In this document: one piece after another, positions 1 to 8,351 of the stretch
How the letters are laid out: the number at the start of each line of letters is the position of its first letter
Numbering within the stretch: the first letter of the stretch is position 1
From: Gammaproteobacteria bacterium
Lineage (GTDB): Bacteria > Pseudomonadota > Gammaproteobacteria > Ga0077554 > Ga007554
DNA: 64,000 nucleotides
Assembly: GCA_033717875.1 (NCBI GenBank)
Contig: JADDKJ010000002.1
Span: forward strand, 67,280-131,279
Direction: 5' to 3'
Translations under genes and position numbers: made by a program
The notes under the pieces: model-generated
Databases searched by the model: none
What the model saw: the letters and a program-made list of their open reading frames with translations, nothing else
What the model was told of the DNA's origin: nothing

Positions 1-804
1 GCCGGTATGGGCTTTCGCGTTGCCGGGGAGACCAATGCACTGATGCGCCGCATGGTCGAGTCGGGCGAGGTCGATGCCCTGGTGCCGGAACGGGTATGGA
101 CGGAGTTGGAACGGGCGCTGGGCGAATCGCGTCCGGCGCGCTTCTTCGAAGTGTTGCGCGACTGCGGCGCCCTGGCGCGGCTGTTCCCCGAAATCGACCG
201 CTTGTTTGGCGTGCCCCAGCCCATCGAACATCACCCCGAAATCGACACCGGCGTGCATGTGATGATGGTGCTGGACCAAGCGGTGCGCCTGTCCAGCGAC
301 CCGTGCGTGCGCTTTGCCGCGCTGATGCACGACCTCGGCAAGGGAACCACACCGGCGGAGGAATGGCCACGCCACCTCGGCCACGAAGAACGTGGCGTGA
401 CGCTGGTGCTGAACCTGTGCCGGCGGCTGCGCGCACCGGCCGACTACCGCGATCTCGCCGTGCTGGCGGCGCGCTATCACACCCATTGCCACCGCGCCGA
501 CGAGTTGCGGCCCTCCACCTTGCTCGACACCCTGCAAGCGCTGGACGCCTTCCGCCGCCCGCAACGCTTCGAAGGCTTTCTGCTGGCGTGCGAGGCCGAC
601 TCGCGCGGCAGACCGGGCTACGAAGAGCGCCCTTATCCCCAGGCCGATCTGTTCCGCGCCGCCCTGCGAGCGGCGCAGGCGGTGGAGGTCAAACCCTTGG
701 TGGAAAAGGGCTACACCGGTGACAAGCTGGCCGAGCAATTACGCTATCAACGCATCGCCGCGGTGGCGCGGATCACGAAAACCAAAGACGAGGAACCTGA
801 GTGA
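1..804 (+). CDS. cca: tRNA nucleotidyltransferase (CCA-adding enzyme), C-terminal part with HD domain; 5' end lies outside the window
   Basis: The ORF runs in frame from the window edge. The HD-domain motif 'HHPEIDTGVHVMMVLD' and the overall C-terminal similarity match bacterial Cca. Confidence 0.8.
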   Translation, partial: AGMGFRVAGETNALMRRMVESGEVDALVPERVWTELERALGESRPARFFEVLRDCGALARLFPEIDRLFGVPQPIEHHPEIDTGVHVMMVLDQAVRLSSDPCVRFAALMHDLGKGTTPAEEWPRHLGHEERGVTLVLNLCRRLRAPADYRDLAVLAARYHTHCHRADELRPSTLLDTLQALDAFRRPQRFEGFLLACEADSRGRPGYEERPYPQADLFRAALRAAQAVEVKPLVEKGYTGDKLAEQLRYQRIAAVARITKTKDEEPE

Positions 805-1568
805 GCGTATTGCTGACGCGCGCCGCCGAGTTGCTGGTGCTGCCGCCTGCCGCGAATCTGCTCCTCGCCGCCCTCGGCCTCGCTCTGCTGCACAAGAAAA
901 AACGGCTGGGCATGGCCCTGCTGGCGCTCTCCCTGACGACCTTATACCTGTTCAGCATCCCCGCCACGGCGCTGTGGCTGATGAATTCATTGCAAAAGGA
1001 TTATCCCGCCCTCACCGCCGCCGATCTTCAACATCCCAAAGCGCAAGCGATCGTCGTGCTGGGCGCGGGGCGCAACTATGACACACCGGAATATGGCGGA
1101 GACACCGCATCCAAATTCGGCCTGGAACGGCTGCGCTATGGCGCCCATCTGCACCGGCTGACCGGCTTGCCGATCCTGGTCACCGGCGGCGCCCCGCACG
1201 GTGAAACCCCGCCCGAAGCAAAGATCATGAAAGACGTGCTGGTCAACGACTTCCGCGTGCCCGTGAAATGGCTCGAAGACAAAAGCCTCACCACCTTCGA
1301 AAACGCCCGCCACAGTCGCCCCCTTCTTGAACAAGCCCACATCCGGCGCGTTTACCTCGTCACCCACGCCTGGCACATGCCACGCTCCGTGCTCGCTTTC
1401 GAACAAGCAGGCCTCACAGTCATCCCCGCCCCCACCGGCTTCGTCACCCCCTGGCCAATAGAACGTGGCGCATTCGCCTGGCTGCCTTCCGCGCACGCGC
1501 TGCAAACGTCTTACTATGCGCTGCATGAGATGGGGGGACGGGTGTGGTATGAGCTGCGGGGGTTATAG
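801..1568 (+). CDS. DUF218 (YdcF/ElyC/SanA-like) membrane-anchored protein
   Basis: N-terminal TM segment, then the conserved blocks 'AIVVLGAG', 'LPILVTGG' and 'TTFENARHS' typical of DUF218. The ORF overlaps the cca stop by 4 nt. Confidence 0.65.
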   Translation: MSVLLTRAAELLVLPPAANLLLAALGLALLHKKKRLGMALLALSLTTLYLFSIPATALWLMNSLQKDYPALTAADLQHPKAQAIVVLGAGRNYDTPEYGGDTASKFGLERLRYGAHLHRLTGLPILVTGGAPHGETPPEAKIMKDVLVNDFRVPVKWLEDKSLTTFENARHSRPLLEQAHIRRVYLVTHAWHMPRSVLAFEQAGLTVIPAPTGFVTPWPIERGAFAWLPSAHALQTSYYALHEMGGRVWYELRGL

Positions 1569-1571
1569 CGT

Positions 1572-1607
1572 GTTCCGGCCAGCGCGCATATCCCGATGTT
1601 AGGCAAT
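1572..1607 (+). CRISPR. Degenerate or truncated terminal CRISPR repeat (first 27 nt match the array repeat, 3' part diverged)
   Basis: 'gttccggccagcgcgcatatcccgatg' is identical to the array repeat, but the 3' 'ATGTATACT' promoter-like end is replaced. Confidence 0.75.
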
Positions 1608-1666
1608 CTGAAAGGAGTGGTTACTTTTCAATGCGGGGGTAATACATCAGGTGCTAAAATAAAAAT

Positions 1667-1906
1667 ATGGCACCGACGATCTTTCGTGAAGGCAGCTTTC
1701 GCTTCTTTTTCTTCTCCCGCGAAGAAACGCGAATGTACGTACACGTCTCGCACCCGGACGGCGAGGAAAAGTTCTGGCTAACCCCAGAGTTGGCTTTGGC
1801 AACGAGTATAGGTCTTTCATCGAAGCAGCTTAAGAAAGCCGAAAATCTTGTTGCGACTCATTTGGAGGAAATAATTCATGCCTGGAATACCCATTTCCCA
1901 AGCTGA
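1667..1906 (+). CDS. DUF4160 family protein (putative TA component)
   Basis: 79 aa with 'FRFFFFSREE...HVHV...KFWL' resembling the DUF4160 consensus. It overlaps the downstream DUF2442 gene, and the local GC is much lower than the surroundings. Confidence 0.65.
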   Translation: MAPTIFREGSFRFFFFSREETRMYVHVSHPDGEEKFWLTPELALATSIGLSSKQLKKAENLVATHLEEIIHAWNTHFPS

Positions 1907-2135
1907 AGTTACCCATGTTTCAAAGCATGGCCTCTGGCTGCTGTTGGACGACGAGGAGTTGTTTCTTTCGTTCACCGATTTTCCTTGGTTCAAAGCCGCA
2001 ACTATTGATCAACTTTGCGAGATTGAGCGCCCGACAGAAGACCATCTTTATTGGCCATCGCTAGACGTTGATCTAGCTGTTGCGTCCATTCGTAATCCAT
2101 CGGCATTTCCATTGGTTTCTGTGGCGCGCGCCTAA
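1878..2135 (+). CDS. DUF2442 family protein (partner of DUF4160)
   Basis: 85 aa. The pattern 'LWLLLDDEELFLSF...' and the 29-nt overlap with the upstream DUF4160 gene are typical of this two-gene module. Confidence 0.6.
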   Translation: MPGIPISQAEVTHVSKHGLWLLLDDEELFLSFTDFPWFKAATIDQLCEIERPTEDHLYWPSLDVDLAVASIRNPSAFPLVSVARA

Positions 2136-2278
2136 TTCTTACGATGCGCACTCCCCGGCCAATACTACCATTGAAGCATTCGGCTCCGGCCAGCATGGCG
2201 CGTGGGCACAAAAGGCGTTTCCACCCTACTTGGCTGCACGCACTCGATTCTTGAAAACCTGGGCGAAATCTTGGCGAT

Positions 2279-2325
2279 TTGATAAAAACCAAATAAAGTG
2301 CTCTAATGGGTACATTATTGAGTAC
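2279..2325 (+). promoter_or_regulatory. Sigma70-type promoter (TTGATA-17-TCTAAT) plus palindrome 'gtacattattgagtac' upstream of phd/relE
   Basis: The -35 sits at 2279-2284 and the -10 at 2302-2307. The palindrome lies between the -10 and the SD 'aggag' before the ATG at 2337, and is a likely autoregulatory operator. Confidence 0.5.
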
Positions 2326-2336
2326 AGGAGTTAAGC

Positions 2337-2606
2337 ATGAACATCATCCCCGCCCAGGAAATCAAGCGCCGCGGCATCGCTGCCGTGGACGAGGCACTGG
2401 CCCAAGGCCCCGTGCACATCATTAAGAATAACCGCCCGCAATACGTGGTGCTGACCGAAGAACGTTACAACGAACTGCTTGAAACGCAGGAAGAAGCCGT
2501 CCTCGCCCGCATCAAGGCCTCGCTGGAAGACGCCAAGGCTGGTCGCACCCTTCGGCACAGCAGTGTTGATGCCCTCCTAAAGCACCTGGACAAAACCGCC
2601 GAATGA
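2337..2606 (+). CDS. Phd/YefM-family antitoxin
   Basis: 89 aa with 'VHIIKNNRPQYVVLTEERYNELLE', typical of Phd/YefM. It overlaps the downstream toxin gene by 4 nt. Confidence 0.8.
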   Translation: MNIIPAQEIKRRGIAAVDEALAQGPVHIIKNNRPQYVVLTEERYNELLETQEEAVLARIKASLEDAKAGRTLRHSSVDALLKHLDKTAE

Positions 2607-2881
2607 GCTGGGCGCTCGTCACAACCGCCAGCTTCGACCGTCGCGCCCGCAAGTTCCTGACCAGGCACCCCGACCTGCGTCCCCGTCTCGCCGAGACCCT
2701 GGAAAAACTGCACACCGACCCCTTCGAACCCAGCCTGCGACTGCATCCCCTGACCGGCAAGCTCCAAGGCATACAGGCCGTCAGCCTCACCTACGGCTAT
2801 CGTATCACCCTCACCCTGCGAATCACCGAGCATGAAATCCTCCTGCTCGACATCGGCAGCCATGATGAGGTGTACAGATGA
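2603..2881 (+). CDS. RelE/ParE-family toxin (type II TA mRNA interferase)
   Basis: 92 aa. The motif 'LRLHPLTGKLQG...YRITLTLRITEHEILLLDIGSHDE' matches the RelE/ParE fold consensus. The gene is coupled to the upstream antitoxin. Confidence 0.75.
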   Translation: MSWALVTTASFDRRARKFLTRHPDLRPRLAETLEKLHTDPFEPSLRLHPLTGKLQGIQAVSLTYGYRITLTLRITEHEILLLDIGSHDEVYR

Positions 2882-2910
2882 GTAGACATAGGGGGGGCGT
2901 GATAGGTGAT

Positions 2911-3809
2911 GTTCCGGCCAGCGCGCATATCCCGATGATGTATACTCGTACAATCATAAACAAGTCGCGCTGCGCCGTTCCGGCCAGCGCGCATATCCCG
3001 ATGATGTATACTGACGGAATTGCAGGCCATCAATGCGTTCTAGTTCCGGCCAGCGCGCATATCCCGATGATGTATACTCGGCGTTACGAGTGGCCGGGGT
3101 TTATCGTGTTCCGGCCAGCGCGCATATCCCGATGATGTATACTCGAGGCGGGAACAATATCTATCAAGTCTCGGGTTCCGGCCAGCGCGCATATCCCGAT
3201 GATGTATACTGCTGATGCGATCCACCCGCTGAAACCCGCGCGTTCCGGCCAGCGCGCATATCCCGATGATGTATACTCCTCAATGGCCCACGATACCACG
3301 CGCACGAGTGTTCCGGCCAGCGCGCATATCCCGATGATGTATACTGCAAGAAAATCATCCCCAGCGGATTCGCCGGGGTTCCGGCCAGCGCGCATATCCC
3401 GATGATGTATACTTGGTCAACCCGGTAGCAACACTCAATGCAGGTTCCGGCCAGCGCGCATATCCCGATGATGTATACTAGACCGCGAATTGCCGTCCGA
3501 TCTGGATGGGTTCCGGCCAGCGCGCATATCCCGATGATGTATACTTACTACGCGAGGTTCTTGCAGGTCATTACGGTTCCGGCCAGCGCGCATATCCCGA
3601 TGATGTATACTCCGTGCGATATTCGATGCGCTCCGTAGAGGGTTCCGGCCAGCGCGCATATCCCGATGATGTATACTACACCCATTTTTCTCGATGACAA
3701 TAAGAAGGTTCCGGCCAGCGCGCATATCCCGATGATGTATACTACGATTCGAGCGCGAAGTCGCCAAGGATCCGTTCCGGCCAGCGCGCATATCCCGATG
3801 ATGTATACT
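2911..3809 (+). CRISPR. CRISPR array with 14 direct repeats of 36 bp (GTTCCGGCCAGCGCGCATATCCCGATGATGTATACT) and 13 spacers of 29-32 bp
   Basis: Repeats start at 2911, 2977, 3043, 3108, 3175, 3242, 3310, 3378, 3444, 3510, 3576, 3642, 3708 and 3774. The repeats are identical, the spacers are unique, and the array lies next to cas2-cas1-cas9. Confidence 0.97.
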
Positions 3810-3820
3810 CCGTATAGCAT

Positions 3821-3853
3821 AACCCACTGATTCACCGGTGGGTTTTTGCTTTT
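3821..3853 (+). terminator. Rho-independent terminator downstream of the last repeat (plus strand)
   Basis: Hairpin 'cccac-tgattcaccg-gtggg' followed by 'tttttgctttt'. The U-run is present only on the plus strand. Confidence 0.5.
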
Positions 3854-3879: not shown

Positions 3880-4206
3880 TCAAAACAATTCAAATTGATC
3901 CGGTGATTTTTTCGCGGGTTGCTTGGCTTTTCCATAGTAGGAAATGATTCGTTCATACTGTTTGTCGGTGAAGGTCAGGATATTGACTTTACCTCCTTCC
4001 GGCAAGGCTTGCTCCACTCGTTTACAGTAGGTATCGATCTGCGCCTGACTGGTGCAGAAGCGCATGTATACTGAGAACTGCGCCATCTCGAATCCCATAT
4101 CCAGGAGTTTGTTGCGAAAGTCCGCCGCGGCTTTGCGCTCTTTCTTTTCCACGACGGGCAGATCGAACATGACGGCCATCCACATTAGGCGATATCCGCT
4201 GAGCAT
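3880..4206 (-). CDS. cas2: CRISPR-associated endoribonuclease Cas2
   Basis: 108 aa with 'MLSGYRLMWMAVMFDLPV', typical of type II Cas2. It sits between the array and cas1. Confidence 0.9.
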   Translation of the reverse strand: MLSGYRLMWMAVMFDLPVVEKKERKAAADFRNKLLDMGFEMAQFSVYMRFCTSQAQIDTYCKRVEQALPEGGKVNILTFTDKQYERIISYYGKAKQPAKKSPDQFELF

Positions 4207-4212
4207 GATGTA

Positions 4213-5142
4213 TCAATCATCAGCCAGATCCGCCGCCATGGACAGCGGGAGCCCCGGCAGTGGGAGATCAACCTTTTCGCGCTCCTTGAGGTACACCTGC
4301 GCCAGCGACACCGCCAGCCGCTGCATACACACCATAACGGGTGTGGCTCCCGAGGTGGTTTGCATGTCGTCGTACAGGCTGCGAACCAGCGTGCGCTTGC
4401 TGTCCGGCGTGATGCTGCTTTCCCCCGATCGTTGCAGCTTCCATACATGCAAATCGACCACGGGGCGAAAAGGTTCCATCAGATCATCAACCAGGCGCAT
4501 GGGGTTGCCTTCATTGGCATGATGCAGCCCCAAAGTGGGGTGGAGGCCGGCGGCGATCACGGCGCGCGCCATGGCGGCACGTAGGACGGTATAACCGTAA
4601 TTGAGCAAGGCATTGACGCCGCCACCGTTCTGGTCACGGCGGAAGTCATCGCCAAACAACAGGTTCCAATAGCGGCGAGCGCCTTGCGCCTCGATATTAT
4701 CAGGGTCGCCGGATCGCACCTTGGCCACAAGCGCCGCAAGCGGCACGAAAGGCGCGCCCGCCGCTTCAAGAGCGGCCGCCTGCTGATGTAGTTTGCTGCG
4801 TACCACCTCCGCCCATAGCCGCTTGTGGGTGGGGCGGGTGGCGGCGAGCTGCGCGTCGAAGCGCTTGGCCTGCTGGAAGTTGCCATCTATGGGCCACAAC
4901 ATACCAATAGCGTTATGGTTGGCAGCGCACAGCACAAAAGGTACGCCGCGCTCGGCCAACGCCACCAACAGGTTGTTGGTATAGCTCAGGCCGTGCGCGT
5001 TGGCGATGACGGCGGCAATGTCATCCAGCGGCACCTGTCCAAGCTCCTTGCGCTCACCTCCTGTGTCTTGCACCACCATGAAGCCACGCGAAGCGAACAA
5101 GTGCCGCCGATCGTCCGCGACCTCGACTATGCGGCCAATCAT
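4213..5142 (-). CDS. cas1: CRISPR-associated integrase Cas1 (type II)
   Basis: 309 aa with Cas1-like sequence throughout. It is adjacent to cas9 and cas2 with 6-nt gaps. Confidence 0.9.
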   Translation of the reverse strand: MIGRIVEVADDRRHLFASRGFMVVQDTGGERKELGQVPLDDIAAVIANAHGLSYTNNLLVALAERGVPFVLCAANHNAIGMLWPIDGNFQQAKRFDAQLAATRPTHKRLWAEVVRSKLHQQAAALEAAGAPFVPLAALVAKVRSGDPDNIEAQGARRYWNLLFGDDFRRDQNGGGVNALLNYGYTVLRAAMARAVIAAGLHPTLGLHHANEGNPMRLVDDLMEPFRPVVDLHVWKLQRSGESSITPDSKRTLVRSLYDDMQTTSGATPVMVCMQRLAVSLAQVYLKEREKVDLPLPGLPLSMAADLADD

Positions 5143-5147
5143 GGTGT

Positions 5148-8100
5148 TTAGCCTTTGAAGCCTGGATCGCGCAGGTCACCAATTTCGGAGACGGTGGTTC
5201 GCCGTCCCCGGGCCTTCTGGAGAGAGCCCGGGTACTTCGATACATACGTGAACGAATCTTCCTTGTCCCGATTTCGGGCGTCCACATTGGCCTCATTGTG
5301 ATCACACATGAATATCTGGCCATTGCCTCCGATCTTGACCACGCGCATGGTCACCGCTTTGCCATCAATGTCGAGTTTAATCATGTCATCGATCATCAAT
5401 CGCATGACCAGCGGTTTGTCCGACTGACTGTACGCCGGATTTCTTAGCCTCTTGAACCCCTCCACCTCTCCGTGCTTGCGAATCAATTGATAGGCTTCAA
5501 ACGTCGAAATCACATCCCCATCCCACTTGCCCTTCTCATTTCGCCAGATTTCGATGCAATAATTGCTGCCACCCACATAGCCTTTGTACGCACGCGGCTG
5601 CCCATCCTCAGCCAGCCCGTGGCGCTGCGGATCATGTGTGCTACTGATGGCGACGAGACTCCTGTTCTTGAACTCGCGCTGACGCGGCCCACCATCTTCC
5701 GGCCTTACTCGCCGAGTTACCACACCATCGCCACGCAAGCCCCAGGCCGTTTTCTCGTGCATGGCACCCTGGTAGCCATGATCCGGCTTATGACTCACGA
5801 TGATATGATTCAATGCCCGCGCAACATGCTCCCGGTAGCTGGGCCATGGCAATGGCATTTCCTCCACCAGCCGGTTGAGCTGATTCTCACGAGCGCTGGC
5901 GCTGGCGTTGGCGAACCGTTGCAGCAAACCCTGATCGGTAATTCCGATGACGGCGGCATCCAGCGCGTGGTGTCGATGGTCGTTACGATTCTTCGCCTCC
6001 GAGCCGGAAAGCAGTTGGTTCAGCCCAAATTTCCCCCGCAGCAGCGCCGTCATGCGGCCAGGAATGGCCCGCACTTTGTTGGGCGGGCAGATCAGTGAAA
6101 GGTATTCCTTGGCAATGCGCGAGAAATAGGCCGTGTCGTTCAGCGCCCTGGCAATAAAGTCTTTGTCTTCCTTGAGCCACCGCTGGTAACCATCCGGCGC
6201 AAAACGTTTGGCCTTTTCTTTGGGCATGAGCGCCGCGCGCTGGAGAATGGCCTCATAGTCGTACTCAGGCGCCAGGCGTTCGCCAAATGCCTCATGAGGT
6301 GTGCGATTGCCCTTGTCGCGATTGGCGCGTCGCAACGATACGGTTTTGTTGTTCAGACTGTCATCCAGCGTCTTTGAATAGGGCAGAATATGCTCTATTT
6401 CCACCTCGCTGGACAGCAGGCGCTCAATACTGATCTGTTCGCCGGTGTAAGGGCATCGGCGATCGGCCACATTCTTTGGATTCAGCTCCACCCAAAGCTG
6501 CATTTTATGGGAAAGTTCGCGGCGCTTGGCGCGGTCAAGATTGGCGGAAACCAATCCGAGTACAGCACAGGCTTCGGTGACCTGCTTGTCATTGAGATCC
6601 TGCCGCTCCTTTTGCTCACGCTGGATATCCAACTTTCTTTCACGGCTCAATTTCAGGTCGCGCGCCACCTCCACAATCACCTCGCTCGGATGGCCGTAGC
6701 GTTTGATCAGCGCGTTCACCACCTTTCGCAATTCATTCAGGCCGATGTGCACCGTGGGATTGGCGATTTTTCCATAGCGCTCTTCATCATTACGCGGATT
6801 ATCCTTGGCAAAGGCGACATGGCGACGTAAGGGAATGCCGTAATAGGGCAGGGAGTCCATGATTTCGCCGGTCTGCTGCGCGTGTGAGAGCTCGCTATGG
6901 CTATCAAACCCGGCACGAGTAACGGCCTCGGAGTAAACAACAACGTCCTTGGCAAGCTCGGGCAGTACCCGTGCCAGGGCGACGCGACTGATGCTGCCAT
7001 ACCCTTCGGGAAGGCCACTGTTGGCTATCCGCTCAGCCGCGGCTTCATCCACTCCGGTGTTCTCTTGTAGCCATTTCACGAGTGCTGACTCGCTGGCTTC
7101 GTTTAACAGCCGATCCACTACGTTATCTTGCAGTATGAGATCAAAGGTGTGCCATTGCTCGCCAAATGCGGTTTCCCTGGAAAGGGCGGCTGACGTGGCG
7201 TTGCCCTTGAGCCGGTCACGCTTGATGTCTTCAAGATTGAATTTGGTTGTGCCTGGCAGGTTCAGCACCTTGAGAATTTTTGTGAACCGGACATCGCCTT
7301 GCCGTTCGAGCAGGTCAACAACCCGATTTCGCTGTTCCAGCGTCAGCTTTTGCTCGCGCAAGTCACGGCTAAGCAATCGCAAGTGATTGACCTCTTGGTA
7401 GATACGAAAACGCTGCGTGCTTGGCAATGCCAGCGGCGCGCGCTCCTCGTCCGGCAGCAGGGTACAACGGCCAGGGCGGACAGGCTTGAGGGGGCGCTGG
7501 TGTAGCAGCACGTCTTTAATCTCGTCGCGCGCCGCATCGTTGAAAAGCACCGGATTCAGGCTGCTCTGTTTGGCCCAAAGTGTGTCGAACTCATGTTCGA
7601 TCATGGCCCGGTCGGCATAGAAGTCGTAGGCCTTGTCCTTCTGTGTTTTGCCGCGCAATCGAGCGCGCACGCTTAATCGCGCCTCATGACGTTTTGCAAG
7701 CCACTCGCCGAGCGTCTGACAGCTTTCCCGAGCCAGCTTCTCGCGCAAATCCCTGATGGCTTTCTTGAGAACGCCGCTGTCGCTGTCTTTTTTATCCGTT
7801 TTGCGGTTGCTTAAGAACCCACGCCGCTGGTTGATGTGAAACAGAGCACGGGCGAATTCAGGACCACTCAGCGCTTCGTACAAACCCTTCTTGCGCAGGG
7901 CATAGGGGTCGAGATTAACCAACGCACGACGCTGGTTTTCGTCTTGAGGAAAAAAGCCCAATTTGGTGAGGGCGGATTGCATTCGCTCTTTGCGCTTGAG
8001 CAACCGGTCTCGGCGACGACGCATCTGGCGTGCATTGCGGCGGGTAACCGCCAATGAGCTGCCGTCCTCCGGATTTCGCCCATCAGAAAAAATGCGTACC

Positions 8101-8213
8101 CCCATGCGAATAATGGCTACGGGTTCATTATTGGCATTCAGACGAATCATGCACCAGCCGACGGATGTTGAACCCATATCCAGAGCCAGCCGGTAATGCA
8201 TTTTGGGTAACAT
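5148..8213 (-). CDS. cas9: Type II-C Cas9 endonuclease (about 1021 aa; the ORF extends to an ATG at 8240, but the SD 'aagga' favours the ATG at 8213)
   Basis: RuvC-I 'YRLALDMGSTSVGW', RuvC-II 'VIVEVARD', HNH 'EIEHILPYS...NNKTV' and RuvC-III 'HHALDAAV' are all present. Its size and the absence of csn2/cas4 indicate subtype II-C. Confidence 0.95.
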   Translation of the reverse strand: MLPKMHYRLALDMGSTSVGWCMIRLNANNEPVAIIRMGVRIFSDGRNPEDGSSLAVTRRNARQMRRRRDRLLKRKERMQSALTKLGFFPQDENQRRALVNLDPYALRKKGLYEALSGPEFARALFHINQRRGFLSNRKTDKKDSDSGVLKKAIRDLREKLARESCQTLGEWLAKRHEARLSVRARLRGKTQKDKAYDFYADRAMIEHEFDTLWAKQSSLNPVLFNDAARDEIKDVLLHQRPLKPVRPGRCTLLPDEERAPLALPSTQRFRIYQEVNHLRLLSRDLREQKLTLEQRNRVVDLLERQGDVRFTKILKVLNLPGTTKFNLEDIKRDRLKGNATSAALSRETAFGEQWHTFDLILQDNVVDRLLNEASESALVKWLQENTGVDEAAAERIANSGLPEGYGSISRVALARVLPELAKDVVVYSEAVTRAGFDSHSELSHAQQTGEIMDSLPYYGIPLRRHVAFAKDNPRNDEERYGKIANPTVHIGLNELRKVVNALIKRYGHPSEVIVEVARDLKLSRERKLDIQREQKERQDLNDKQVTEACAVLGLVSANLDRAKRRELSHKMQLWVELNPKNVADRRCPYTGEQISIERLLSSEVEIEHILPYSKTLDDSLNNKTVSLRRANRDKGNRTPHEAFGERLAPEYDYEAILQRAALMPKEKAKRFAPDGYQRWLKEDKDFIARALNDTAYFSRIAKEYLSLICPPNKVRAIPGRMTALLRGKFGLNQLLSGSEAKNRNDHRHHALDAAVIGITDQGLLQRFANASASARENQLNRLVEEMPLPWPSYREHVARALNHIIVSHKPDHGYQGAMHEKTAWGLRGDGVVTRRVRPEDGGPRQREFKNRSLVAISSTHDPQRHGLAEDGQPRAYKGYVGGSNYCIEIWRNEKGKWDGDVISTFEAYQLIRKHGEVEGFKRLRNPAYSQSDKPLVMRLMIDDMIKLDIDGKAVTMRVVKIGGNGQIFMCDHNEANVDARNRDKEDSFTYVSKYPGSLQKARGRRTTVSEIGDLRDPGFKG

Positions 8214-8261
8214 ATTTTTTTCCTTGAGTTGATTTCCCATTCAATAAAAGTATAGAATAAA

Positions 8262-8351
8262 ATTTGTATACTGCATCGGGATATGCGCTCTGTCCGCTAA
8301 CAAGCTGAAAGATGCACCAAATGAGAGGCCGCTATAAGCGGCCTTTTTCTT
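8262..8351 (+). ncRNA. Candidate tracrRNA (anti-repeat, nexus, terminator hairpin), divergent from cas9
   Basis: 8266-8300 is complementary to the CRISPR repeat, with a 2-nt internal mismatch (bulge) and scattered mismatches. A TTGATT-18-TAGAAT promoter lies upstream at 8229-8258. Hairpin 'ggccgc-tataa-gcggcc' plus TTTTT occupies 8327-8349. Confidence 0.75.

Follow-up and report, generated by a model that had tools for sequence, protein, structure and literature searches.

Two toxin-antitoxin operons between a truncated repeat and the remainder of a type II-C CRISPR array: a probable insertion into the oldest repeat

In type II-C systems, CRISPR arrays carry a promoter in each repeat and receive new spacers at the last repeat (Feussner et al., 2025, PMC12080349), and their oldest, “extra” repeat bears mutations in its first ~15 nt (PMC12080349). 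The DUF4160/DUF2442 pair is a toxin-first toxin-antitoxin (TA) system, DhiTA, that was validated in Dickeya dadantii (PMC8198452); a member from Thermus thermophilus raises plasmid persistence, has a validated toxin and was described as a “persistence enhancing module” (PMC12724237), and both the toxicity of DUF4160 and its neutralization by DUF2442 have been shown for the Dickeya and Thermus members (PMC8198452, PMC12724237). Here we describe a locus at which a pair of this kind, followed by a second TA pair of the Phd/RelE type, lies between a 27-nt remnant of a CRISPR repeat and a type II-C array made of intact copies of the same repeat. The locus is in the left part of a 64,000-nt stretch (hereafter the window) of contig JADDKJ010000002.1, which belongs to a metagenome-assembled genome (MAG). 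We consider it likely that illegitimate recombination placed 1.28 kb of foreign DNA (~1599-2881) inside the oldest, cas-distal repeat of the array.

The evidence begins with the repeat remnant, which we call the stub. The 27-mer GTTCCGGCCAGCGCGCATATCCCGATG opens every one of the 14 full repeats (GTTCCGGCCAGCGCGCATATCCCGATGATGTATACT, 14 copies with 0 mismatches) and occurs a fifteenth time in the window at 1572-1598, but not once in shuffled sequence. The initial annotation had reported an exact 27-nt repeat copy at 1572, about 1.3 kb from the array; the copy is there at 27 of 27 positions, and the shuffles exclude a chance match. Past position 27 the stub continues as TTAGGCAAT and the repeat as ATGTATACT, the identity stopping abruptly, with no fading, and the stub lies 1,339 nt upstream of the array. 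The lost 3′ ATGTATACT holds the −10-like box TATACT. The predicted duplex with the trans-activating CRISPR RNA (tracrRNA) has an energy of −42.3 kcal/mol for the stub, −46.8 for the full repeat and a mean of −16.7 for shuffled repeats, so that by predicted pairing the stub appears tracrRNA-competent but promoter-less. On its left the stub is flanked by the DUF218 gene, whose stop codon (1566-1568) ends 3 nt before it, with no terminator between the two. Three devices against “extraneous” CRISPR RNAs (crRNAs) have been published, namely repeat mutation, an upstream terminator and a guide-sequestering hairpin; neither the stub nor repeat 1 is preceded by any of them. A 12/13 direct repeat, TGCGGGGGT(T/A)ATA, stands on either side of the stub, at 1555-1567 (the end of the DUF218 gene) and at 1632-1644 (the promoter region of the first TA pair); the second copy lies at the patch in which the window departs most from L175, a metagenomic contig with the closest DhiTA-type cassette. 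Over the region scanned, a match of this quality is no more than chance predicts, and it is no fit for a Cas9 seed.

The type and orientation of the system are fixed by its own components (Table 1). The open reading frames (ORFs) between 3880 and 8240 encode Cas2, Cas1 and Cas9 domains and nothing else by Pfam, with neither csn2 nor cas4; only cas9, cas1 and cas2 being present, the system is type II-C. The anti-repeat at 8266-8296 is 87% complementary to every repeat, and since it is on the forward strand the crRNA sense is also forward and the array is read towards cas2, the cas operon converging on it from the other side. Because acquisition in type II-C occurs at the last, cas-proximal repeat (PMC12080349), the stub marks the oldest end. 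Spacers in the array measure 29-32 nt, spacer 1 starting with CGTACAATCATAAAC. A hairpin and T-run directly follow the last (newest) repeat in the window (3810-3850) as well as in Sulfuritortus (L001, 11290-11335); such an element would stop array transcription before it collides with cas2.

Table 1. Features of the locus, with coordinates in the window
Feature	Position	Strand	Remarks
CCA-adding enzyme gene, 3′ part	7-804		opens the left 9 kb of the window
DUF218/ElyC-like chromosomal gene	801-1568	+	Pfam DUF218 118 bits; NCBIfam ElyC weak match; GC3 0.76
Truncated oldest repeat (R0′, the stub)	1572-1598	+	repeat positions 1-27 exact; 3′ ATGTATACT lost
Upstream region of DhiTA-type cassette	1599-1666	+	GC 0.37
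dhiT-like toxin gene (DUF4160, 79 aa)	1667-1906	+	Pfam 51.1 bits vs cut-off 23
dhiA-like antitoxin gene (DUF2442, 85 aa)	1878-2135	+	Pfam 59.9 bits vs cut-off 23.9
Inter-cassette stretch	2136-2297	.	162 nt; no stable fold, z = +2.3
Putative promoter, operator and ribosome-binding site of Phd/RelE operon	2279-2336	+	read from sequence; aligned with L168-L172
phd/yefM-type antitoxin gene (89 aa)	2337-2606	+	Pfam PhdYeFM_antitox 33.1 bits vs 29.8
RelE-superfamily toxin gene (YafQ/YoeB-like, 92 aa)	2603-2881	+	overlaps phd by 4 nt
29-nt putative oldest spacer (S0)	2882-2910	+	spacer length; starts GTAGACATAGG; sequence GTAGACATAGGGGGGGCGTGATAGGTGAT
CRISPR array	2911-3809	+ (crRNA sense)	14 identical 36-nt repeats, 13 spacers
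Terminator hairpin and T-run	3821-3844	+	after last repeat
cas2	3880-4206	-	Pfam
cas1	4213-5142	-	Pfam
cas9	5148-8240	-	Pfam; NCBIfam Cas9 631 bits
tracrRNA	8266-8350	+	anti-repeat 8266-8296, then terminator hairpin; divergent from cas9

To place the stub among its kind we compared the locus with a related set of 160 loci from genomes and metagenomes, collected with Cas1 as the probe. Only one protein, from a 137,980-bp MAG contig labelled Gammaproteobacteria, is 100% identical to the Cas1 of the window, whose next relatives, Sulfuritortus calidifontis among them, are 85-90% identical; an exact search for the 27-mer repeat start found it neither in one genome per species nor in the metagenomes of the Joint Genome Institute (JGI). 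The related repeats form one family, GTTCCGG.CAG.GC.CA.ATCCC.... (betaproteobacterial type II-C), and all 70 distinct consensus repeats (L001-L167) end in TAnA(C/A)T, or TAnAMT: TAGACT in 23, TAAACT in 15, TAGAAT in 10, TAAAAT in 9, TATACT in 6, TACACT in 5, and TATAAT and TACAAT in 1 each. This constancy fits the published rule of one promoter per repeat (PMC12080349), and it makes reasonable the initial annotation’s view that a stub without TATACT cannot drive transcription.

The manner in which the stub is damaged sets it apart from ordinary terminal repeats. Among 69 non-redundant arrays with a visible cas-distal end, the terminal repeat is mutated in 34, with mismatches mainly in the 5′ half (positions 1-9) in 31 of these and mainly in the 3′ half in 2; the 5′ ends of related terminal repeats thus go first and the 3′ TAnAMT box is kept, which reproduces the published 5′ mutation of the oldest “extra” repeat. 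The pattern of the stub, a perfect 5′ part with the 3′ end lost, occurs in none of the 69. Ordinary decay of a terminal repeat was accordingly rejected, 27/27 identity at the 5′ side with the loss of 9 nt at the 3′ side being the reverse pattern, and this reversal identifies the end of the stub as a truncation breakpoint.

The DNA that begins at this breakpoint is foreign in composition. GC content is 45-52% over 1600-2400, against 63-70% in the flanks, and GC at third codon positions (GC3) is 0.55 in the DUF4160 gene and 0.45 in the DUF2442 gene, against 0.76-0.80 in the flanking chromosomal genes. Homology points the same way: window 1597-2135 aligns without gaps and at 90.5% identity with L175:166-704, a block that spans the 68-nt promoter region and both genes, starts where identity to the repeat ends and stops at the DUF2442 stop codon. 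Composition and homology to an unrelated contig together support a foreign origin of this pair, as had been proposed from its higher AT content. By domains and gene order it is a DhiTA-type member; its two genes overlap by 29 nt, as do those of L175-L178 with their 85-aa partner, and homologs of the DUF4160 protein have 79 aa and up to 92% identity. A putative extended −10, TGCTAAAAT, read from the sequence at 1652-1660, ends 6 nt before the dhiT-like ATG, with no ribosome-binding site, and on account of this spacing the mRNA is probably leaderless; L175 has TGCTATAAT in the same place. Directly upstream of the L175 cassette, the closest DhiTA-type relative, is a strong hairpin (78-171, 22-bp stem, z = −6.15), whose last 6 nt fall within the block homologous to the window.

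The second pair is of a more host-like make, with GC3 of 0.71 and 0.79 in its antitoxin and toxin genes. Window 2298-2883 is ~86% identical to Phd/RelE modules of L168-L174, with weaker similarity extending back to ~2265; those modules are found in chromosomal regions where TA pairs stand in tandem, away from any CRISPR. The promoter and palindromic operator that the initial annotation assigned to this pair can be read as a candidate −35 TTGATA (2279-2284), a 17-nt gap, a −10 TCTAAT (2302-2307), two GTACA cores (2310-2314 and 2322-2326, 12 nt apart) and a GGAG (2327-2330). A consensus promoter scan did not report this promoter because its rule requires an A at position 2 of the −10 hexamer, which TCTAAT lacks. 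The spacing of the GTACA cores resembles that of known YefM operators. The 92-aa toxin falls below family cut-offs (Pfam YafQ_toxin 25.7 vs 30, NCBIfam RelE_StbE 26 vs 27.9, NCBIfam YafQ 25.7 vs 87), and since it scores just under the curated YafQ and RelE/StbE values we place it, by sequence profile, at the level of the RelE/ParE superfamily only. A profile of 24 of its homologs matches the solved RelE-fold toxins HP0892, YoeB and HP0894 over nearly the full length (E = 1e-4 to 6e-3, and about 1e-4 for HP0892 and YoeB); homologs reach 95% identity, and R67, H87 and Y91 are invariant in those aligned. The interval thus holds the two TA-like modules first proposed for it, all four genes being matched by Pfam or profile, and since each protein has the length of its many homologs, all four look functional.

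Two short stretches frame the second pair. The 162 nt between the cassettes have no homolog in the fetched loci, plasmids or phages. The repeat 10-mer TCCGGCCAGC recurs there, exact for the third time, at 2185-2194 (11/12 with the two preceding bases), which could be a second repeat stub or chance (rough p 0.05-0.1); an extended remnant at 2185-2201 was rejected as not significant, 38% of shuffles scoring as well. At the other end, homology to the relatives of the toxin gene stops at 2883, and for the remaining 27-29 nt up to repeat 1 the fetched loci, plasmids and phages likewise offered no homolog. The toxin stop codon, said by the initial annotation to lie 30 bp before repeat 1, is at 2879-2881, which leaves 29 nt: the close spacing stands and the figure does not. 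These 29 nt are within the 29-32 nt range of the spacers, hence our designation of 2882-2910 as the putative oldest spacer. It has no protospacer match among viral contigs, but neither have two bona fide control spacers, so the comparison is uninformative.

We therefore favor an insertion, on the grounds of the sharp breakpoint, the edge of the foreign block that coincides with it, the spacer-length remainder before repeat 1 and the precedent of an insertion sequence (IS) within the same repeat family. Such an event would have cut the oldest repeat after position 27, with loss of its last 9 nt and the internal −10 box, and would have left the 27-nt stub on one side, beside the DUF218 gene, and on the other the former oldest spacer (2882-2910) with what remained of the array. 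The simplest order would then be stub (repeat positions 1-27), insert (1599-2881), old spacer (2882-2910) and repeat 1, and the uninterrupted ancestor would have read CCCGATGATGTATACT joined to GTAGACATAGG.... The insert would consist of two independent, intact type II TA operons, each with a promoter of its own, which would act as selfish addiction modules and through linkage would incidentally penalize loss of this end of the CRISPR island. The earlier suggestion that addiction modules split the array at its leader-distal end is supported by the orientation of the array, by the breakpoint at which the L175 homology begins (1597), by the stub's loss of the promoter box and by the foreign origin of the first pair. 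The event looks recent, because the stub and repeat 1 are unmutated, because the GC3 of the first pair has not drifted to the host value and because no device against extraneous crRNAs has arisen upstream of the stub or of repeat 1.

The precedent is a ~1.2-kb IS630-like element inside repeat 9 of a 65-repeat Methylibium array (L040, 14961-16311), with terminal inverted repeats (TGTGGTGCGC...), both repeat halves kept and a TA dinucleotide apparently duplicated. Detached upstream repeat copies are otherwise explained by short gaps or elements resembling miniature inverted-repeat transposable elements (MITEs; L009, L062, L072) or by neighboring degenerate units (L070, L076), and in all remaining related loci the score for an upstream repeat copy is at background. 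L009 (11928-12228 and 13488-13978) carries its MITE-like insert in one spacer, with ~20-nt terminal inverted repeats, and, separately, a 342-nt gap after the first repeat with a 76-aa ORF that has no Pfam match.

Several observations weigh against an insertion as we have drawn it. Neither a genome with the same repeat nor an insert-free orthologous locus was found in one genome per species or in the JGI metagenomes, so the ancestral state is reconstructed rather than observed; an orthologous insert likewise did not turn up. The right breakpoint is fixed only to ~2881-2892, as weak similarity to the 3′ flank of the toxin gene’s relatives may run for ~10 nt; were it past 2881, part of the old spacer would have been lost and the argument from spacer length would weaken. 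Both homology blocks end 0-2 nt from a stop codon, a tightness for which the reading offers no reason, and the insert shows no target-site duplication or terminal inverted repeat. The cassettes differ in GC content and are 162 nt apart, and may stem from one event or from two. Finally, the sequence comes from a MAG.

Of the other accounts of this layout the one that survives best, though we think it improbable, is a Campbell-type integration in which a circular element carrying both TA operons and a partial repeat recombined with the first repeat of the array through 27-28 nt. The left-hand copy would then be a truncated hybrid and the right-hand one a complete repeat, 2882-2910 would be DNA of the element rather than a spacer, and the ancestor would have read TTATAGCGT, a full repeat and CGTACAATCAT.... 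The two copies do share exactly 28 nt (1571-1598 and 2910-2937), enough for short-homology recombination, and a single crossover gives the observed layout; an ancestor with the DUF218 gene, 3 nt and repeat 1 is also plausible, given that the Sulfuritortus array starts 11 nt after the stop codon of its neighboring gene. Repeat units are known to occur on mobile elements. Such an element, however, must already have held an exact 27-nt copy of the host repeat preceded by a spacer-length stretch, that is, DNA derived from an array; the 1.3 kb contain no integrase, replication or mobility gene, and no plasmid, phage or other contig was found with the TA segment or with a repeat copy beside these TA families. 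Integration of this kind is also less parsimonious than insertion.

An assembly artefact, in which the assembler joined DNA of another organism into the array through a shared repeat k-mer, seems to us very unlikely. The source is a MAG, the sole Cas1 on record with 100% identity comes from the 137,980-bp MAG contig mentioned above, no independent assembly of the contig is on record, and the first TA pair clearly differs in GC content. Against this, the assembler would have had to make two false joins at one and the same repeat, the left one at position 27 inside the repeat instead of at its edge, and the 28-nt shared stretch is shorter than common final k-mers, which we assume for this assembly. 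The Phd/RelE half, moreover, is host-like, and a chimera would still require that a repeat-flanked TA segment exist in some real genome.

We give no more credence to the idea that the stub is a functional RNA, either a crRNA-like regulator in the manner of CreA, scaRNA or tracr-L, or a decoy for tracrRNA and Cas9 that couples the toxin operons to CRISPR. The stub keeps exactly the tracrRNA-pairing part of the repeat (predicted −42.3 vs −46.8 kcal/mol) and follows a gene by 3 nt with no terminator between, and what would be its guide matches 12 of 13 positions at 1632-1644, in the dhiTA promoter region. Yet the 4 nt next to the repeat, the Cas9 seed, mismatch there, and ~0.6 such 12/13 pairs are expected by chance in the region scanned; a search of the 64 kb for further seed matches of 10-12 nt came up empty both for the stub guide and for the putative oldest spacer. 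The stub also has no promoter of its own, and the absence of a comparable element from related loci means that there is no conservation.

Integron gene cassettes, with an integrase placing the TA pairs at a secondary site in the repeat (junction G|TTAGGC), were considered and rejected, and we regard them as most improbable. Chromosomal integrons often hold TA cassettes, the core-site consensus GTTRRRY is matched by GTTAGGC at 1598-1604, where the break falls between G and TT, and both homology blocks end tightly near stop codons. There is, however, no inverse core site (RYYYAAC) and no attC-like site pair in 1400-3000, and no stable hairpin follows either cassette (z = +2.3 and +0.8); the corresponding position of L175 reads GCTAGGA, and the AAC/GTT triplets of integron attC sites are missing from the L175 hairpin. 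The match itself was spotted after the fact, with a chance of roughly 1 in 256. Lastly, we see next to no prospect that the 1.3 kb are a giant Cas1-Cas2 “spacer”, bounded though they are by direct-orientation repeat sequence, or that the 27-mer is a chance match: type II-C acquisition works at the other end of the array and duplicates the whole repeat (PMC12080349) where here one copy is truncated, spacers in the window have 29-32 nt, and 0 chance matches are expected, so that both ideas are refuted.

If the oldest repeat was indeed interrupted by an insertion, several consequences would follow for the expression of the locus. With the upstream repeat promoter lost, the oldest spacer would be expressible only by read-through from the RelE-type toxin gene, and read-through from the DUF218 gene into the stub could yield a spacer-less, “extraneous” crRNA, whose only perfect DNA match would be its own locus, repeat-flanked like any unit of the array. 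Outside transcription would thus have two unprotected entries, from the DUF218 gene into the stub and from the toxin gene into repeat 1, and the stub offers a natural test case for the recently proposed problem of extraneous crRNAs in type II-C. The cassettes may stabilize the array through linkage, and if they do, the view of toxins as guardians of CRISPR loci would gain a protein-based case. A much stronger proposal is that TA expression and crRNA biogenesis are coupled in both directions, with read-through from the stress-inducible Phd/RelE operon as the sole precursor of the oldest crRNA and with tracrRNA, RNase III and Cas9 setting the ends of the TA and DUF218 messages at repeat 1 and the stub. 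We hold this to be highly doubtful; were it true, loss of cas9 or tracrRNA would shift the TA balance, and the locus would be a protein-based, type II analogue of CRISPR-guarding toxins.

TA genes as neighbors of these loci are not in themselves rare. Pfam searches of 251 small ORFs in the distal flanks of 57 arrays matched four ParE toxins, one YafQ/RelB pair (L079), one HigB/helix-turn-helix pair (L065) and two ribbon-helix-helix proteins, so that roughly 6 of the 57 have a type II TA pair of one sort or another no more than 1.3 kb from their cas-distal end; a local hidden Markov model of the RelE family proved too insensitive on these flank ORFs. In L065 the HigB/helix-turn-helix pair points towards its array and stops 170 nt short of the first repeat. 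TA genes are also found on the cas9 side: L005-L007 have a Phd/ParE pair between lysS and cas9 (L005 6110-6797), and L003 has a HipA kinase gene upstream of cas9 (4909-6309). TA pairs beside these loci are therefore recurrent, as expected for defence islands. None of the arrays with TA genes in the distal flank has a repeat stub beyond that flank, no other case of genes between a repeat stub and its array was found among about 100 related arrays, and the four TA families of the window have no tblastn match in the 167 related loci; nor did searches of plasmid and phage DNA match the whole segment. Within this sample, only the window has a TA pair inside a repeat. The locus is a clean and datable case of CRISPR array remodelling at the old end, and it indicates that TA cassettes, besides insertion sequences, can lodge inside a repeat.

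The tracrRNA module, outside the interval of interest, varies in orientation among the relatives. It diverges from cas9 in the window, whereas in L026, L031, L051 and L080 a sense-oriented repeat-like copy lies upstream of cas9, ~4.8-5.2 kb beyond the array; in these four the module is apparently inverted and so would be read in the direction of cas9.

Set against the systems described to date, the array of the window most resembles the type II-C arrays of the Neisseria meningitidis and Campylobacter jejuni type (Feussner et al., 2025, PMC12080349), with which it shares the convergent cas9-cas1-cas2 operon, the tracrRNA, 36-nt repeats that end in a −10-like hexamer and an oldest repeat at the cas-distal end, upstream in array transcription. 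In those arrays, however, the extra repeat keeps its promoter end and mutates its first ~15 nt, whereas the stub does the opposite and is parted from the array by 1.3 kb of genes. Arrays interrupted by an IS or a MITE (L040, L009) belong to the same repeat family and are likewise regular except for foreign DNA within one repeat or spacer; the IS of L040 comes with both repeat halves, a target duplication, terminal inverted repeats and a transposase, whereas the insert of the window shows no such feature, cost the repeat 9 nt and brings TA operons. With CreTA, Francisella scaRNA and Streptococcus pyogenes tracr-L the locus has in common a toxin locus beside cas genes with a degenerate repeat as its neighbor, and the notion of a toxin that guards CRISPR, but CreTA is a pair of RNAs, whereas the toxins and antitoxins of the window are proteins with promoters of their own, which we take to be autoregulated; and where the guides of CreA, scaRNA and tracr-L are seed-complementary to a promoter, that of the stub has no seed match to any promoter and no conservation in related loci. 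Solitary repeat units and RNA anti-CRISPRs are carried and expressed by phages or plasmids; no phage or plasmid DNA matched the segment and the promoter-less stub directly adjoins a gene of the chromosome, though a mobile carrier in the past is conceivable. The first TA pair shows the two Pfam domains, toxin-first order, overlapping genes and putative own promoter of the Dickeya DhiTA and the Thermus module, but its proteins are distant in sequence, with best plasmid homologs at most 53% identical, and the Dickeya and Thermus papers report no link between the family and CRISPR. The second pair follows the Phd/YefM-RelE/YoeB/YafQ modules in being antitoxin-first with a 4-nt overlap and a promoter followed by paired GTACA cores, its toxin scoring just under the curated YafQ and RelE/StbE cut-offs. 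All parts of the locus (a type II-C array, a DhiTA-type pair and a Phd/RelE-type pair) are of known kinds, and array insertions and TA genes beside CRISPR are familiar; what we see here is probably a passive, ordinary genome rearrangement rather than a new system, and its peculiarity lies in the placement, since TA cassettes take the position inside the oldest repeat that an insertion sequence might have had.

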